A stretch of 64,000 nt of DNA. It comes from Escherichia coli. GTDB lineage: Bacteria > Pseudomonadota > Gammaproteobacteria > Enterobacterales > Enterobacteriaceae. Position numbers and translations under genes: made by a program. Below are positions 4,813 to 52,353 of the stretch, in pieces (the first letter of the stretch is position 1; every line of letters begins with the position of its first letter). The stretch lies in assembly GCF_003334305.1 (NCBI RefSeq), contig NZ_QOWS01000008.1; one strand, 5' to 3'. Under the pieces are notes generated by a model that was not told the DNA's origin, made no database searches, and saw only the letters and a list, made by a program, of their open reading frames with translations.

Positions 4813-5004
4813 CCACAACCAAACTCATAATATATTCCGGCAATATTTATCACTTCATTAACAACTGAAACCTTAATTAAACATTAGCCAGTCCGGGTAA
4901 TTCACTATTCGAATTATATTTTCGCTGCGATATAACCTTGAGCCACATCAACATTGAGTCAGATTATTATTCAAACCAACATTCGCACACATTTTAAGTA
5001 TTGC

Positions 5005-5031
5005 TGATAGAAACCATTCTCATTATCATTG
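5005..5031 (+). promoter_or_regulatory. Candidate Fur box in the feoABC promoter region
   Basis: TGATAGAAACCATTCTCATTATCATTG resembles the GATAATGATAATCATTATC Fur consensus, about 110 bp upstream of the feoA ATG. Confidence 0.5.
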
Positions 5032-5140
5032 TGTTGTTGATTATTTAATCTCTCCTTTGTTGGCAAATCATCTGGTCTCATGTCGCTGTCAAACGCCCCA
5101 TGAGGTAGTTATCCAGTTAATGAGAAACAAGTAGGCACCT

Positions 5141-5368
5141 ATGCAATACACTCCAGATACTGCGTGGAAAATCACTGGCTTTTCCCGTGAAATCAGCCCG
5201 GCATATCGCCAAAAACTGCTTTCTCTTGGCATGTTACCTGGCTCCTCTTTTAATGTGGTGCGCGTCGCTCCACTCGGCGACCCCATTCATATCGAAACCC
5301 GTCGTGTGAGCCTGGTATTACGCAAAAAAGATCTGGCCTTATTAGAAGTGGAAGCGGTTTCCTGTTAA
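5141..5368 (+). CDS. feoA: Ferrous iron transport protein FeoA (75 aa)
   Basis: 75-aa [40 protein letters not shown]..., SH3-like FeoA, directly upstream of feoB. Confidence 0.93.
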
Positions 5369-5384
5369 TACGGTGATAACAACA

Positions 5385-7706
5385 ATGAAAAAATTAACCA
5401 TAGGCTTAATTGGTAATCCAAATTCTGGCAAGACAACCTTATTTAACCAGCTCACTGGCGCACGTCAGCGTGTAGGTAACTGGGCTGGCGTTACCGTCGA
5501 ACGTAAAGAAGGGCAATTCTCCACCACCGATCATCAGGTCACGCTGGTGGACCTGCCCGGCACCTATTCTCTGACCACCATCTCATCGCAGACCTCGCTC
5601 GATGAGCAAATCGCCTGTCACTACATTTTGAGTGGCGACGCCGACCTGCTGATTAACGTGGTGGATGCGTCTAACCTTGAGCGTAACCTGTACCTGACGC
5701 TACAACTGCTGGAACTCGGCATTCCCTGCATCGTGGCACTGAACATGCTCGACATTGCCGAGAAGCAAAATATTCGTATTGAAATTGATACTCTGTCGGC
5801 GCGTCTTGGCTGCCCAGTGATCCCGCTGGTTTCAACCCGTGGTCGCGGTATTGAAGCGCTCAAGCTGGCGATTGATCGCTATAAAGCTAACGAGAATGTG
5901 GAACTGGTGCATTACGCACAGCCGCTACTCAACGAAGCAGATTCACTGGCAAAAGTGATGCCTTCCGACATCCCGCTGAAACAACGTCGCTGGCTGGGCC
6001 TGCAAATGCTGGAAGGCGATATCTACAGCCGCGCCTACGCCGGTGAAGCGTCGCAGCATCTGGATGCCGCCCTCGCCCGTCTGCGTAATGAGATGGACGA
6101 TCCGGCGCTGCACATTGCCGATGCGCGTTACCAGTGCATTGCTGCCATCTGTGATGTGGTAAGCAACACCCTGACGGCAGAACCCAGCCGTTTCACCACT
6201 GCGGTAGATAAAATCGTGCTCAACCGTTTCCTCGGTCTGCCGATTTTCCTCTTTGTGATGTACCTGATGTTCCTGCTGGCTATCAACATCGGCGGGGCGT
6301 TACAGCCGCTGTTTGACGTCGGCTCCGTGGCGCTATTTGTGCATGGTATTCAATGGATTGGCTACACGCTCCACTTCCCGGACTGGCTGACTATCTTCCT
6401 CGCCCAGGGCCTGGGTGGCGGCATTAACACCGTGCTGCCACTGGTGCCGCAGATTGGCATGATGTACCTGTTCCTCTCCTTCCTTGAGGACTCCGGGTAT
6501 ATGGCGCGTGCGGCGTTTGTGATGGACCGTCTGATGCAGGCGCTGGGCTTGCCGGGGAAATCCTTTGTGCCGCTGATCGTCGGTTTCGGTTGTAACGTAC
6601 CGTCGGTAATGGGTGCACGTACGCTTGATGCACCGCGTGAACGTCTGATGACCATCATGATGGCACCGTTTATGTCCTGCGGCGCGCGTCTGGCTATCTT
6701 CGCAGTATTCGCGGCTGCCTTCTTCGGGCAGAACGGTGCGCTGGCGGTCTTCTCGCTGTATATGCTGGGTATTGTGATGGCGGTGCTGACTGGCCTGATG
6801 CTCAAGTACACCATCATGCGCGGTGAAGCGACGCCGTTTGTCATGGAGTTGCCGGTCTATCATGTACCACACGTTAAAAGCCTGATTATCCAGACCTGGC
6901 AGCGTCTGAAAGGCTTCGTTCTGCGTGCTGGTAAAGTGATCATCATCGTCAGCATTTTCCTGAGCGCTTTCAACAGCTTCTCGCTGAGCGGGAAAATCGT
7001 CGATAACATCAACGACTCGGCGCTGGCGTCCGTCAGCCGGGTGATCACCCCGGTCTTCAAGCCAATTGGCGTGCATGAAGATAACTGGCAGGCAACGGTT
7101 GGCCTGTTTACAGGTGCCATGGCGAAAGAAGTGGTAGTGGGTACGCTCAACACCCTCTACACCGCAGAAAATATTCAGGACGAAGAGTTCAATCCGGCAG
7201 AATTTAACCTCGGTGAAGAGCTGTTCAGTGCGATAGATGAAACCTGGCAGAGCCTGAAAGACACCTTCAGCCTTAGCGTACTGATGAACCCCATTGAAGC
7301 CAGCAAAGGCGACGGCGAAATGGGTACCGGGGCGATGGGCGTGATGGATCAGAAATTCGGTAGCGCAGCAGCAGCTTACAGCTACCTGATTTTCGTCCTG
7401 CTGTATGTACCATGTATCTCGGTGATGGGAGCCATCGCCCGTGAATCAAGCCGTGGCTGGATGGGCTTCTCCATCCTGTGGGGGCTGAATATCGCTTACT
7501 CGCTGGCAACATTGTTCTATCAGGTCGCCAGCTACAGTCAGCACCCAACTTACAGCCTGGTGTGCATTCTGGCGGTTATCCTGTTTAACATCGTGGTTAT
7601 CGGTCTGCTGCGCCGCGCGCGTAGCCGGGTGGATATCGAACTGCTGGCAACCCGCAAGTCGGTAAGCAGTTGCTGCGCAGCCAGCACCACCGGTGATTGC
7701 CATTAA
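5385..7706 (+). CDS. feoB: Ferrous iron transporter FeoB, G-protein domain plus polytopic membrane domain (773 aa)
   Basis: Track ORF begins at an upstream GTG (5373); the ATG at 5385 gives [25 protein letters not shown] (P-loop GTPase) followed by a multi-TM permease domain. Confidence 0.95.
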
Positions 7707-7942
7707 TGGCTTCACTTATTCAGGTGCGCGATTTGCTGGCGTTACGGGGCCGTATGGAAGCGGCCCAGATAAGCCAGACATTGAACACTCCACAGCCAAT
7801 GATTAACGCCATGCTGCAACAACTGGAAAGTATGGGCAAAGCCGTGCGGATTCAGGAAGAACCTGACGGCTGCCTCTCTGGCAGTTGTAAAAGCTGCCCG
7901 GAAGGAAAAGCCTGTCTGCGCGAGTGGTGGGCGCTGCGTTAA
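7706..7942 (+). CDS. feoC: FeoC, small winged-helix protein of the feo operon (78 aa)
   Basis: The ATG at 7706 overlaps the feoB TAA by 1 nt (TAATG). Product [27 protein letters not shown]... carries the cysteine cluster [15 protein letters not shown]. Confidence 0.88.
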
Positions 7943-28483: not shown

Positions 28484-29089
28484 TCATTGTAAATAATTGA
28501 ATAACGGCCCCTGAGCTAAAATCGCCAAACTTAAGCACGTTACCCAATCGCCCCACTTCTTCCTCTGGTTTCTATTTTTTCTGCACCAATGGCAATAATA
28601 TCCCCATGCAAAACCAAGCTGTGCACTAATCGGGCCGACAAAATCAGTCCAAGGCTGCGGCCAAAAAGGGGAAAAATTCAGGGGAGGCCAGACAAACGTC
28701 AGAAAGAAATTTCGGATATTTTCCAGCAACGCTGATTTCTCTGGAGAAATATAAAGAATGAAATTCGAGAGAATTAACCAGAAATAGACCGGCGAAAAGA
28801 CCAGCCAGCAATGCAGTCTGTTTTTTAATTCAGGAGGCGTTCTGCGGGAGAATTGCCAACCGATGCCAGCCATTACACTGAAAAAAAGTGCATATTCAAC
28901 CATTAACTCAAGTTGTAATTCCTGAAGAGAAATACGCACAACCAGGAGCGGAAAGGAGAATATTATTTCTGCCAGAAAAGTTAACGTGAATATAAGTACG
29001 GCTAAGACAATAACCGTCGGCCATACCAATAATGGCACGATAACAAAACCGAGAATTACAGGGGGAATATAAAGCCGGAATTTAATCAT
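28484..29089 (-). CDS. Hypothetical small polytopic membrane protein (201 aa), last gene of the unknown four-gene operon
   Basis: ATG start; 201-aa ORF MIKFRLYIPPVILGFVIVPLLVWPTVIVLAVLIF... with about 4-5 hydrophobic spans and a basic C-terminal segment (WCRKNRNQRKKW). The start lies 2 nt after the stop of the upstream gene. I do not recognise a family. Confidence 0.55.
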   Translation of the reverse strand: MIKFRLYIPPVILGFVIVPLLVWPTVIVLAVLIFTLTFLAEIIFSFPLLVVRISLQELQLELMVEYALFFSVMAGIGWQFSRRTPPELKNRLHCWLVFSPVYFWLILSNFILYISPEKSALLENIRNFFLTFVWPPLNFSPFWPQPWTDFVGPISAQLGFAWGYYCHWCRKNRNQRKKWGDWVTCLSLAILAQGPLFNYLQ

Positions 29090-29091
29090 TT

Positions 29092-29859
29092 TTATTTTCC
29101 TGGTGATTCGGATGATGCGTCATACATCGCGCATAAACACTCATCAATTATCCAGTCATCTTCCCAGACCTGATATTCTGTCATTGGTTCGGGCTGTTTT
29201 AGCGGATTCTCAATCGCTTGCCGCGCTCTTTCTTTCAGTAAAGGATGATTATTTCTAGCCCAGGCATTGATTTGGGTGGTAATGACGTTATCGATATCGT
29301 CCTGGTTATCTCTGATATAATCCTCACAATATCTGTTCAATAAACAGGCAAGAGAAACGGTCGACCAAAAGCCGGGAACTGAATTAATGGCATCCAGCAA
29401 TGGCGCAAGAGCGATATCGGCACGGAAAAACATTTCCAGCATATACTGTAATTCGACAGCTTCATCGCCGGATACCCAATCAGTCATATACTGGCAGGCA
29501 AATCGCTGTAAAATTGCCCGTTCATCCGCACGCCAGTTTTCTTTACTGGCAAGGTTTATACGCCGTAGAGAAAAAACTACGTGAATATTGTCAAAATGCC
29601 CCTGTGCAACAAATTCCAGTAAACGCGGCAGAAAATAGCGGACCTCATCGCTATTTTGCGGATCAGGCCCTGGGCTACTATTCCAGGCATTGATTAAGGA
29701 ATACGGGATCGCTCGTAACGATGTACTCCGTAATGCCTTTTGTTCCTGCTGACTCAGGCAATATTCACAACAAACCACAAATTTCTGCGGCACCTGATAA
29801 CGACGAAAGGTGTGATAAATCTGCTCAATTAATGCCTGCATGGCGGGGCTGGGTTGCAT
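29092..29859 (-). CDS. Hypothetical soluble acidic protein (255 aa), third gene of the unknown operon
   Basis: ATG start; MQPSPAMQALIEQIYHTFRRYQVPQKFVVCCEYCLSQQEQ... with Cys motifs (CCEYC, DECLC). Its stop is 2 nt from the next start. No recognisable family. Confidence 0.55.
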   Translation of the reverse strand: MQPSPAMQALIEQIYHTFRRYQVPQKFVVCCEYCLSQQEQKALRSTSLRAIPYSLINAWNSSPGPDPQNSDEVRYFLPRLLEFVAQGHFDNIHVVFSLRRINLASKENWRADERAILQRFACQYMTDWVSGDEAVELQYMLEMFFRADIALAPLLDAINSVPGFWSTVSLACLLNRYCEDYIRDNQDDIDNVITTQINAWARNNHPLLKERARQAIENPLKQPEPMTEYQVWEDDWIIDECLCAMYDASSESPGK

Positions 29860-29861
29860 AG

Positions 29862-47854: not shown

Positions 47855-48892
47855 TTACTTAGCGAGAGTTACTGTGGAGGGAGAGGCTTGCTCAAATCCG
47901 CGTTCAAGGATTTCCAGATTGGTAAGAACTTCAGATTCCTTGACGTAATTTGGCGCACCGTGGGTGATGGTTTGATACAACGCATCATAAACGCGCCCGT
48001 AATCGCCCATCTCCGGCTTCATCTCTTCTCTGACCGTCACGCCCTCGTCATTGACATACTCCAGCACACCGACCGAATCATCCGCTGCGAATCCCGGTTC
48101 GCCCGGCATAATATTAGCCTTCAGGCTGGTTTCCTGCTGGTCGATACCGTATTTAATAAACGAACCTTTCTTACCGTGAACGATAAATTTCGGATAATCG
48201 ATTTTCACCAGATGGCTGGTTTTGACGATGGCTTTCAGGTCGCCATAAAACAGTTGCGCTTCAAAGGTGTCGTCAGGATTGGCTTTATTACGCAGGCTGC
48301 GGATGTCATAAGCGACGTGATCCGGGCGACCGAACAGAGAAATAATCTGGTCCATCGTATGCACACCAAGGCCATAAAACGCGCCATCCTGCGGCAGCCC
48401 AGGTTTGGTTTCTGCCACCGGGCGGTAATAGTCAAAATGGCTTTCCACTTCAACAATCTCTCCCAACTTGCCACTTTCAATCGCTTTTTTCGCTGTCAGG
48501 AAGCAGGAGTCAAAGCGACGATTCTGATACGGCGTGACGGTCAGCCCTTTGCTTTTCGCCAACGCAAACAGCTCCTTCGCCTGGGCAAGCGTCGGGGTGA
48601 ACGGTTTTTCGACCAGCACATTTTTCCCGGCTTCCAGCGCGCGTTTCGCGTACTCGAAATGGCTGTCCGCGTGGGTGCAGACAACAACCAGCTTAACATC
48701 GGGATCGTTTAGTACTTCGTCGAGATCGCTGGTGAAATGGATATGGGAATAAATGGGAGCCTGTTCTTCCGGCTTCGCATGGCGACGAAAAATATGCGCG
48801 ACATGCCAGCTATCCTTGCGGTTAAGTACATACGGCAGATGGTAACGGGTGGTGCTTTTGCCGAAGCCAATAAAGGCGCAGTTGATGACCAT
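47855..48892 (-). CDS. yhhX: Gfo/Idh/MocA-family NAD(P)-dependent oxidoreductase YhhX (345 aa)
   Basis: 345-aa ORF MVINCAFIGFGKSTTRYHLPYVLNRKD... (Rossmann N-terminus). Confidence 0.92.
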   Translation of the reverse strand: MVINCAFIGFGKSTTRYHLPYVLNRKDSWHVAHIFRRHAKPEEQAPIYSHIHFTSDLDEVLNDPDVKLVVVCTHADSHFEYAKRALEAGKNVLVEKPFTPTLAQAKELFALAKSKGLTVTPYQNRRFDSCFLTAKKAIESGKLGEIVEVESHFDYYRPVAETKPGLPQDGAFYGLGVHTMDQIISLFGRPDHVAYDIRSLRNKANPDDTFEAQLFYGDLKAIVKTSHLVKIDYPKFIVHGKKGSFIKYGIDQQETSLKANIMPGEPGFAADDSVGVLEYVNDEGVTVREEMKPEMGDYGRVYDALYQTITHGAPNYVKESEVLTNLEILERGFEQASPSTVTLAK

Positions 48893-49008
48893 GATTTCGT
48901 CCTTTTTAAGGTGGTTATTTACACCTTAGCGCAAAGCGGACGTGGTTCCTACTGGAGTGCGCATAACGAACACAAGCACTCCCGTGGATAAATTGAGAAC
49001 GAAAGATC

Positions 49009-49103
49009 AAAAAAAAAGCCAGCACCCGGCTGGCTAAGTAATACTGGAAGCAATGTGAGCAATGTCGTGCTTTCAGGTTCTCCGCGAGGGTCTTCCTGAT
49101 CGC
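49009..49103 (-). ncRNA. ryhB: Fur-repressed small RNA RyhB
   Basis: Minus-strand sequence GCGATCAGGAAGACCCTCGCGGAGAACCTGAAAGCACGACATTGCTCACATTGCTTCCAGTATTACTTAGCCAGCCGGGTGCTGGCTTTTTTTTT matches the RyhB sequence as I recall it, including the terminator hairpin and U9 tail. Confidence 0.92.
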
Positions 49104-49130
49104 GAGACAATAATAATCATTCTCATTCGC
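49104..49130 (-). promoter_or_regulatory. Fur box / promoter of ryhB
   Basis: Minus-strand GCGAATGAGAATGATTATTATTG immediately upstream of the RyhB 5' end, with GATAAT/ATCATT hexamers. Confidence 0.6.
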
Positions 49131-49224
49131 ACTTGTCCAACACTTTTTGCAAAAAAATGCATTTGACTCGCATTTGAAAGTCAATGATGTTGAAAGGGAC
49201 ATTTACCCCAAAGAGGACAAAGGA

Positions 49225-49713
49225 ATGAGTGAGATAGTAATACGCCACGCAGAAACACGGGATTACGAGGCCATCAGGCAGATTCACGCCCAGCCGGAGG
49301 TGTATTGCAACACACTACAGGTGCCTCATCCTTCCGATCATATGTGGCAGGAGCGACTCGCCGATCGTCCCGGCATCAAGCAACTCGTCGCCTGTATTGA
49401 TGGAGACGTCGTGGGCCATCTCACCATTGACGTGCAACAGCGCCCACGCCGCAGTCATGTTGCCGATTTTGGTATCTGTGTCGACTCTCGTTGGAAGAAC
49501 CGCGGCGTCGCCAGCGCCCTGATGCGAGAGATGATTGAAATGTGCGACAACTGGTTGCGGGTAGATCGCATTGAACTAACCGTGTTTGTCGATAACGCCC
49601 CGGCAATTAAGGTCTATAAAAAATACGGCTTTGAAATTGAAGGGACTGGTAAGAAGTACGCATTGCGTAATGGTGAATATGTCGATGCATATTATATGGC
49701 GCGGGTGAAGTAA
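49225..49713 (+). CDS. yhhY: GNAT-family N-acetyltransferase YhhY (162 aa)
   Basis: Track ORF 49147..49713; the internal ATG at 49225 (AGGA upstream) gives MSEIVIRHAETRDYEAIRQIHAQPEV... with the acetyl-CoA-binding motif (RWKNRGVASALM). Confidence 0.9.
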   Translation: MSEIVIRHAETRDYEAIRQIHAQPEVYCNTLQVPHPSDHMWQERLADRPGIKQLVACIDGDVVGHLTIDVQQRPRRSHVADFGICVDSRWKNRGVASALMREMIEMCDNWLRVDRIELTVFVDNAPAIKVYKKYGFEIEGTGKKYALRNGEYVDAYYMARVK

Positions 49714-49949: not shown

Positions 49950-51128
49950 ATGAGTAATATTGTTTACCTGACAGTAACGGGAGAACAACAAGGAAGCATC
50001 TCCGCAGGTTGTGGGACTTCTGAGTCTACAGGTAATCGTTGGCAGAGCGGGCATGAGGATGAAATATTTACATTCTCACTCTTAAATAATATTAATAATA
50101 CGGGGCTTGGTTCACAGTTCCATGGTATAACATTTTGTAAATTAATTGATAAAAGCACTCCATTATTTATTAATTCCATTAACAATAATGAACAATTATT
50201 TATGGGATTTGACTTCTATCGAATAAATAGATTTGGTAGATGGGAAAAGTATTATTATATACAACTAAAAGGCGCTTTTTTATCGGCTATTCATCATCAG
50301 ATCATTCAAAATCAACTGGATACAGAAACAATAACTGTTAGTTATGAATTTATCCTCTGTCAACATCTTATCGCAAATACCGAGTTCAGCTATTTGGCAC
50401 TCCCTGAAAATTATAACCGTTTGTTTTTACCAAATTCAAAAAACCAAACAAATAATCGTTTCAAAACGTTAAACAGCAAAGCTATTGGCAGGCTACTTGC
50501 TGCTGGTGGCGTATACAATGGGAACATTGAAGGATTCAGAGATACTGCGGAAAAACTGGGTGGAGATGCAATAAAAGGCTATGATCAAATACTAAATGAA
50601 AAAACAGCGGGCATAGCGATAGCAACAGCATCTATTCTTTTAACAAAGCGTTCTAATGTTGATACATATACAGAAATAAATAGTTACTTAGGCAAACTTA
50701 GAGGTCAACAAAAACTTCTTGATGGTATAGACATAATAGAAATAATATACATTAAGAGACCTTCAAAAGACTTAGCTAACTTACGAAAGGAGTTTAATAA
50801 AACTGTAAGAAAAAATTTTCTTATCAAACTTGCAAAAACCTCCGAAGCATCTGGAAGATTCAACGCCGAAGACCTTTTAAGAATGAGAAAGGGCAATGTT
50901 CCTCTAAATTATAATGTTCACCATAAACTATCTCTAGATGATGGTGGTACTAATGATTTCGAAAATTTAGTATTAATCGAAAACGAACCATATCATAAAG
51001 TTTTTACTAACATGCAATCACGAATAGCTAAGGGAATATTAGTAGGTGAAAGCAAAATCACTCCCTGGGCCATTCCATCTGGCTCAATTTATCCTCCCAT
51101 GAAAAATATTATGGACCACACAAAATGA
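49950..51128 (+). CDS. yhhZ: YhhZ-like polymorphic toxin (392 aa): N-terminal Hcp-like domain fused to a C-terminal HNH (beta-beta-alpha-metal) nuclease domain
   Basis: The N-terminus (MSNIVYLTVTGEQQGSISAGCGTS...) resembles Hcp/TssD. The C-terminus carries NYNVHHKLSLDDGGTNDFENLVLIENEPYHKVF (HH...N...H). Local sequence is strongly AT-rich compared with the flanking genes. Confidence 0.8.
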   Translation: MSNIVYLTVTGEQQGSISAGCGTSESTGNRWQSGHEDEIFTFSLLNNINNTGLGSQFHGITFCKLIDKSTPLFINSINNNEQLFMGFDFYRINRFGRWEKYYYIQLKGAFLSAIHHQIIQNQLDTETITVSYEFILCQHLIANTEFSYLALPENYNRLFLPNSKNQTNNRFKTLNSKAIGRLLAAGGVYNGNIEGFRDTAEKLGGDAIKGYDQILNEKTAGIAIATASILLTKRSNVDTYTEINSYLGKLRGQQKLLDGIDIIEIIYIKRPSKDLANLRKEFNKTVRKNFLIKLAKTSEASGRFNAEDLLRMRKGNVPLNYNVHHKLSLDDGGTNDFENLVLIENEPYHKVFTNMQSRIAKGILVGESKITPWAIPSGSIYPPMKNIMDHTK

Positions 51129-51619
51129 TGACTAAAACCCAAATAAATAAATTAATAAAAATGATGAATGATTTAGACTATCCATTTGAAGCACCGCTCA
51201 AGGAATCATTTATTGAAAGTATAATCCAAATAGAATTTAATTCTAATTCAACTAATTGCCTGGAGAAGTTATGTAATGAAGTTAGTATTCTTTTTAAGAA
51301 TCAACCTGATTATCTTACTTTTTTAAGAGCAATGGATGGATTCGAAGTTAATGGATTACGATTATTTAGCCTCTCGATTCCAGAACCTTCAGTTAAAAAC
51401 CTTTTTGCCGTAAATGAATTTTATAGAAATAATGATGATTTCATAAACCCTGATCTACAAGAACGGTTAGTGATCGGGGATGATAGCATTTCAATATTTA
51501 CTTATGACATTAAAAGTAACTTTTTTGAAATTAGAGATAATATTGGCACAGAAAATATATTCAGTTCGTTTAGTGATTTCTCTTCATTCTTAAACGAAAT
51601 CATGGACAGTTGTTCATAA
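51125..51619 (+). CDS. yrhA: YrhA-like putative immunity protein (164 aa), translationally coupled to yhhZ
   Basis: The ATG overlaps the yhhZ TGA (ATGA). Acidic 164-aa product MMTKTQINKLIKMMNDLDYPFEAPLKESFIES..., AT-rich. No IS1 sequence interrupts it. Confidence 0.65.
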   Translation: MMTKTQINKLIKMMNDLDYPFEAPLKESFIESIIQIEFNSNSTNCLEKLCNEVSILFKNQPDYLTFLRAMDGFEVNGLRLFSLSIPEPSVKNLFAVNEFYRNNDDFINPDLQERLVIGDDSISIFTYDIKSNFFEIRDNIGTENIFSSFSDFSSFLNEIMDSCS

Positions 51620-51869: not shown

Positions 51870-52068
51870 ATAAGAAAATCCCGTTCGACGTTCTGAAAAA
51901 GAAATCATAAAATATTAGCAGATACTTATTTCGTGACTATATCTTATCCGATGAACTTTTTTCAAAACCAGCATTTAATAATATCTTTGACGAAGATGAA
52001 CGCGTCTTTGCTCAATGTATCACACAGGAATAATAATATAACACTCAACAATAATATTTATTATAATT

Positions 52069-52353
52069 ATGATTACTTATCACGACGCATTCGCGAAAGC
52101 GAACCATTACCTTGATGATGCAGATCTCCCGGTCGTCATTACTCTACATGGACGCTTTAGCCAGGGCTGGTATTTCTGTTTCGAAGCACGAGAATTTCTC
52201 GAAACTGGAGATGAGGCCGCGCGCTTAGCTGGTAACGCACCTTTTATTATTGATAAAGACAGTGGTGAAATTCATTCTCTGGGAACGGCAAAGCCGCTGG
52301 AAGAATATCTACAGGATTACGAAATAAAAAAGGCTACCTTCGGCTTGCCCTGA
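52069..52353 (+). CDS. yrhB: YrhB-like small protein (94 aa), putative immunity-type protein
   Basis: 94-aa ORF MITYHDAFAKANHYLDDADLPVVITLHGRFSQGWYFCFEAREFLETGDEAARLAGNAPFIIDKDSGEIHSL.... Confidence 0.8.
   Translation: MITYHDAFAKANHYLDDADLPVVITLHGRFSQGWYFCFEAREFLETGDEAARLAGNAPFIIDKDSGEIHSLGTAKPLEEYLQDYEIKKATFGLP

Follow-up and report, generated by a model that had tools for sequence, protein, structure and literature searches.

The ryhB locus of an Escherichia coli chromosome: sequence elements, conservation and genomic setting

The yhhX–yhhY spacer and the gene it carries

The window analysed here is a 64,000-nt stretch of E. coli DNA. The features recognised in and around its spacer between yhhX and yhhY are as follows.

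47855–48892, minus strand: yhhX (oxidoreductase), downstream of ryhB and on the same strand; annotation and NCBIfam equivalog NF007574 (779.8 bits, cut-off 352)
49009–49103, minus strand: ryhB transcript, 95 nt in the K-12 annotation, 5' end at G49103
49009–49017, minus strand: run of nine T (U9 tail, part of the Hfq-binding module), from the sequence
49017–49035, minus strand: Rho-independent terminator stem-loop, stem AGCCAGC/GCTGGCT with 7 pairs (5 G-C) and a 5-nt loop
49010–49074, minus strand: segment covered by the Rfam RyhB covariance model (RF00057), comprising the conserved core, a spacer and the terminator
49044–49070, minus strand: conserved 27-nt core GCACGACAUUGCUCACAUUGCUUCCAG, RyhB nt 34–60, with exact copies in at least 120 stretches
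49058–49066, minus strand: seed GACAUUGCU, RyhB nt 38–46, complementary to the sodB start-codon region
49106–49124, no strand assigned: main Fur box GACAATAATAATCATTCTC, 16/19 to the consensus GATAATGATAATCATTATC and 15/19 when read on the minus strand
49112–49130, no strand assigned: second Fur-box match, 14/19, shifted by 6 nt from the main box
49110–49115, minus strand: -10 hexamer TATTAT from the promoter scan, with 6 nt between it and the start at 49103
49134–49139, minus strand: -35 hexamer TGGACA from the promoter scan
49225–49713, plus strand: yhhY (GNAT N-acetyltransferase), divergent; annotation and NCBIfam equivalog NF007527 (373.2 bits, cut-off 236)

RyhB serves the Fur regulon as its post-transcriptional arm and is biologically important. 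The original prediction had placed a RyhB unit of about 90–95 nt on the minus strand of this spacer and had proposed a covariance-model search as a check. Run with cmscan over 4227 Rfam families, this search returned RF00057 (RyhB) as the sole match at or above the gathering score in the 64-kb window, at 49010–49074 on the minus strand, with 83.1 bits where the gathering score is 55, an E-value of 3.6e-14 and the full model aligned (positions 1–67 of 67). With one Rfam match, the window holds a single syntenic ryhB copy. The K-12 ncRNA ryhB (b4451, annotated as 95 nt) maps exactly to 49009–49103 on the minus strand of the window. The Rfam match and the identity to the annotated K-12 gene together substantiate the predicted unit, and the lower coordinate proposed for it, 49009, coincides exactly with the 3' end in the annotation. 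Mature RyhB is usually given as about 90 nt, with its 3' end inside the U run.

The spacer itself spans 48893–49224 (332 nt), and a 333-nt stretch across it is 100% identical to both K-12 MG1655 and strain E2865. When a 361-nt spacer query was used, it was found at 95% identity or more in 5425 of 5426 complete E. coli genomes, on the chromosome every time. RyhB (b4451) of K-12 MG1655 has the same transcript, promoter, Fur boxes, terminator, orientation and neighbours (yhhX and yhhY); the ryhB locus shows no difference between the two, whereas the surrounding DNA differs. On these comparisons, the gene is, base for base, the RyhB type member, beyond mere membership of the family.

The annotation and the NCBIfam equivalogs place the gene between yhhX and yhhY, where it had been predicted and where ryhB has been described (PMC2189734, PMC3415461). 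The same yhhX/ryhB/yhhY arrangement recurs in other genera, as seen in the flanks of the fetched core copies. The prediction had also held that ryhB is easily overlooked by ORF-based annotation, and this is borne out by the PGAP annotation of E2865, which has no feature between yhhX and yhhY despite the 100% identical spacer, as well as by the ten best-matching RefSeq records, in which yhhX and yhhY alone are annotated under the match.

Promoter, Fur boxes and terminator

A sigma-70-like site with an 18-nt spacing, TGGACA-18 nt-TATTAT, lies at 49139–49110 on the minus strand and agrees with the consensus at 10 of 12 positions, 0.5 such sites being expected in the region. Six nucleotides separate its -10 hexamer from G49103, at which the start was placed. 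The whole window was scanned on both strands with the 19-nt Fur-box consensus. The box at 49106–49124 is the best match in the window and the only one with three mismatches or fewer in 64 kb (0.01 expected from shuffles); in a first-order Markov simulation, 0.03 matches of at least 15/19 are expected per window. This main box overlaps the -10 hexamer, with its edge 3 nt upstream of the start, which is the geometry required by repression via promoter occlusion. A Fur box over the promoter had been predicted, and the match on the -10 hexamer upholds this. The range proposed for the whole locus, 49009–49130, takes in the 3' end of the transcript and the Fur boxes, but leaves the -35 hexamer outside.

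In K-12, a Fur site of 25.2 bits, which overlaps two weaker ones directly before ryhB, was confirmed by gel shift (PMC2189734). The second match at 49112–49130 is consistent with this overlapping cluster. RyhB is raised in strains lacking Fur and mediates iron sparing, and the iron-sparing regulon has been described (PMC4676285).

At the other end of the transcript, the predicted hairpin with a U9 terminator is present as a 7-bp stem followed by nine T from 49017 to 49009. The polyU length of 9 is that published for RyhB; readthrough at the ryhB terminator, measured on a plasmid, was about 20%, and Hfq binding needs the U tail at the 3' terminus (PMC4509938). The hairpin alone is robust, appearing in both the MFE and the centroid structures. 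The whole transcript does not fold more stably than its shuffles (z = -0.67), as expected because the seed of an sRNA must remain unpaired. Between the ryhB terminator and yhhX, a weak terminator-like hairpin was also noted on the minus strand (48971–48986; 6 pairs, 3 of them G-C, with a poor T tail). It may have arisen by chance, the number expected for the region being 0.6.

Complementarity of the core to sodB

The seed is perfectly complementary to K-12 sodB at positions -4 to +5, across the start codon, with nine Watson–Crick pairs out of nine. The longest perfect complement was used as the test statistic in place of an unrestricted RNAduplex prediction; a 9-nt perfect complement anywhere in the 90-nt sodB target was reached by 46 of 2000 RyhB shuffles. 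Unrestricted RNAduplex, applied to full RyhB and sodB from -60 to +30, gave a long, meaningless duplex that was not clearly above shuffles (30/500). G44 and C45 belong to the seed that is used on sodB, sdhCDAB and uof-fur, and Hfq stabilises RyhB and promotes its pairing, while RNase E degrades RyhB along with its targets (PMC6191717). Target repression that depends on Hfq and RNase E is a subject of the published literature (PMC6191717, PMC8544716).

Conservation in other genomes

Searched for as an exact match in one genome per species, the 27-nt core was retrieved in at least 120 stretches. Among the matches listed, the core is carried by Citrobacter, Enterobacter, Klebsiella, Yersinia, Serratia, Pantoea, Erwinia, Photorhabdus, Xenorhabdus, Hafnia, Dickeya, Pectobacterium, Aeromonas, Photobacterium, Aliivibrio, Salinivibrio and Zobellella. 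Since the copies were retrieved by an exact core match, the core is invariant by construction and the set is uninformative on covariation in the internal core hairpin. The flanks of the core were compared among the matches listed, with the proviso that all counts given here are of phylogenetically related sequences that share descent. A Fur box of at least 14/19 lies within 110 nt upstream of the core in 112 of 115 copies, a set that has enough flank and is drawn from other genomes only (mostly other genera); the chance expectation, scaled from the window simulation, is about 0.002 per 110-nt segment.

The hairpin and T run are kept in 108 of 120 copies among the matches listed, counting perfectly paired stems of 6 bp or more with five or more T behind them. 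The stems vary in a compensatory manner in this set: GCCAGC/GCTGGC occurs in 74 copies and GCCCGC/GCGGGC in 7, and GCCGGC/GCCGGC and GGCCAG/CTGGCC are further types. The 12 copies that fall short comprise 11 from Vibrionaceae and one from Erwinia (L026), whose 5-bp stem is below the 6-bp threshold.

Two groups of relatives differ from the gene in the window. Paralogues in Enterobacterales, such as ryhB-2 of Klebsiella pneumoniae (PMC3415461), share the 27-nt core, the upstream Fur box and a hairpin with a U-run terminator; however, they occupy other loci, do not lie beside yhhY and have different 5' parts. Vibrionaceae RyhB, for instance that of Vibrio vulnificus (PMC8764119) and the copies in Photobacterium, Aliivibrio and Salinivibrio, has the core and the upstream Fur box as in the window, but lacks a terminator immediately behind the core, so that its transcripts should be longer.

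A second, unlinked core copy was seen in Yersinia, Serratia, Photorhabdus, Pantoea, Pectobacterium, Hafnia, Mixta and Acerihabitans. Salinivibrio has two tandem core copies about 300 nt apart (L082, 10920–11253; also L086), both preceded by a Fur-like box of their own. PrrF1 and PrrF2 of Pseudomonas aeruginosa are Fur-repressed sRNAs that follow the same iron-sparing logic and are functional analogues of RyhB only; they are not known to have sequence homology to it.

Alternative readings of the locus

Given that yhhX follows ryhB on the same strand at a distance of 116 nt, the Fur-regulated promoter might serve yhhX, the RyhB-like segment being a mere 5' leader or attenuator of its mRNA. The in vivo selection of Fur sites originally assigned the site to yhhX, as recounted in PMC2189734, and the roughly one in five polymerases that pass the ryhB terminator on a plasmid (PMC4509938) point the same way. 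Yet PMC2189734 itself moves the Fur site to ryhB, and a strong intrinsic terminator with U9 stands between the two genes. Moreover, the sRNA, its Fur box and its terminator are kept where yhhX does not adjoin them: yhhX is next to ryhB in only 23 loci among the matches listed, against at least 120 core copies. We therefore regard a leader of yhhX as highly improbable, and some readthrough from ryhB into yhhX may occur as a side effect.

The gap had been described as free of ORFs, which is not strictly so: three mechanical ORFs, 95, 53 and 54 aa long, overlap the locus. The longest of them runs through ryhB on its strand (48915–49202, minus) and begins with ATG, so that the locus could in principle be read as protein-coding, through this ORF or through a small peptide within the transcript. 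No AUG occurs anywhere in the ryhB transcript, however, and the ATG at 49202 lies upstream of both the promoter and the start site. The 95-aa ORF is annotated neither in K-12 nor in the PGAP record of E2865. Among the matches listed, the frame is open for 14–288 codons from stop to stop (median 56) in 115 copies, and an ATG-started ORF of at least 80 aa passes through the core in only 8 of these 115; this set comprises copies whose frame lies wholly within the fetched DNA and, unlike the 115 copies used for the Fur box, includes that of the window. Being unannotated and not conserved, the 95-aa ORF was rejected as a gene, and the chance that the locus encodes a protein is negligible. Equally hard to credit is a silent or decayed ryhB copy, functionless in the source strain: nothing in its favour was found, the entire spacer, with promoter, Fur boxes, seed and terminator, is free of substitutions when compared with K-12, and the ryhB spacer is conserved in all but one of the complete E. 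coli genomes searched.

The locus is thus almost certainly the chromosomal ryhB of E. coli, a Fur-repressed, iron-sparing sRNA acting on mRNAs of the sodB/sdhCDAB type, and the source strain would presumably act as K-12 does.

Proposed mechanism

The following model joins the gene identity, sequence elements, conservation and sodB complementarity observed here with Fur binding, iron regulation and the dependence on Hfq and RNase E, which are taken from publications on the K-12 gene of identical sequence. Under iron-replete conditions, Fe2+-Fur would sit on the overlapping boxes at 49106–49130, covering the -10 hexamer and the start and blocking transcription. When iron is scarce, Fur would depart and RNA polymerase would initiate at G49103, with termination at the hairpin and U9 expected to yield an RNA of 90–95 nt. 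Hfq would then bind the terminator hairpin, the U tail and an upstream U-rich stretch, presenting the core (nt 34–60) in single-stranded form. The core is predicted to pair with mRNAs of non-essential iron proteins (sodB, sdhCDAB) in their translation-initiation regions, and this pairing would block ribosomes and trigger RNase E-coupled decay, so that iron is spared.

As a finding, the ryhB locus is correct but ordinary and already known, and it adds nothing to the knowledge on E. coli K-12 ryhB that has been in place since 2002. Its value is that of a quality check, in which a textbook regulatory RNA was recognised correctly from raw sequence, with accurate coordinates.

Divergent linkage of ryhB and yhhY

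Among the matches listed, 49 loci have ryhB and yhhY side by side in divergent orientation; they extend across Enterobacterales, with Yersinia, Serratia, Pantoea and Hafnia included. In these 49 loci, the RyhB core starts about 150–215 nt from the yhhY start codon (for example in L007, L018, L054 and L074), and distant Enterobacterales retain the linkage with YhhY identities down to 46–57%. In the window, the Fur boxes lie about 95–120 nt upstream of the yhhY ATG. This conserved divergence over a shared control region suggests that yhhY might be under iron/Fur control.

A scan of the region with the consensus promoter gave no match for a yhhY promoter, and yhhY is not named in the main text of the Fur-regulon paper (PMC4676285). 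Among the titles and abstracts of the literature that mentions YhhY, none bore on ryhB, and we found no published explanation of the linkage. That the divergent pairing is functional, with yhhY under iron/Fur control or its activity tied to RyhB, is an idea to which we give a low probability; synteny was the one line of evidence found. As a separate point, a possible identity of YhhY with the Hfq-binding acetyltransferase HqbA was rejected, since HqbA is YhbS (PMC10710024).

The feoABC locus and other features of the window

A Fur box had also been predicted upstream of feoABC, giving two Fur-regulated loci in the window. The genes concerned are as follows.

5141–5368: feoA, feoABC locus
5385–7706: feoB, feoABC locus
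7706–7942: feoC, feoABC locus

Three Fur-like matches in 6-nt phase lie about 110–140 nt upstream of feoA, at 5003–5021 (12/19), 5009–5027 (13/19) and 5015–5033 (13/19). As matches at the level of 13/19 occur 33 times in the window, a Fur site upstream of feoA is not established from the sequence alone. Two Fur clusters at feoA have been published (PMC2189734), with which the phased matches at 5003–5033 fit, and feoABC is repressed by Fur under anaerobiosis (PMC4676285). The prediction of two Fur-regulated loci is therefore right in substance, because the literature supports the feoABC site (PMC2189734, PMC4676285), while the sequence statistics behind it, at 13/19, are weak.

Another cluster of phased Fur-consensus matches (13–14/19) lies at 52047–52077, where the DNA ahead of the ggt region is very rich in AT. 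Base composition, and not a Fur site, is the probable explanation.

Between glpD and glgP, four genes are found on the minus strand (28484–32105), at a position where K-12 has only the remnant yzgL. One encodes a 505-aa protein with a C-terminal part resembling PstS phosphate-binding proteins (TIGR02136, 122.7 bits, below the cut-off of 206.6), and the other three encode proteins of 236, 255 and 201 aa annotated as hypothetical. None of the four genes matched the PADLOC defence models. The insert is annotated in the bovine strain E2865 too, and its presence means that the window is not from K-12.

On the plus strand, 49950–51619 holds yhhZ (392 aa, with an N-terminal Hcp1/TssD domain; a putative endonuclease in the K-12 annotation) followed by an intact yrhA (164 aa, YrhA family). 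The window has yrhA without IS1, whereas the K-12 gene is split by IS1E. Together, yhhZ and yrhA look like an orphan pair of the Hcp-effector/immunity type.
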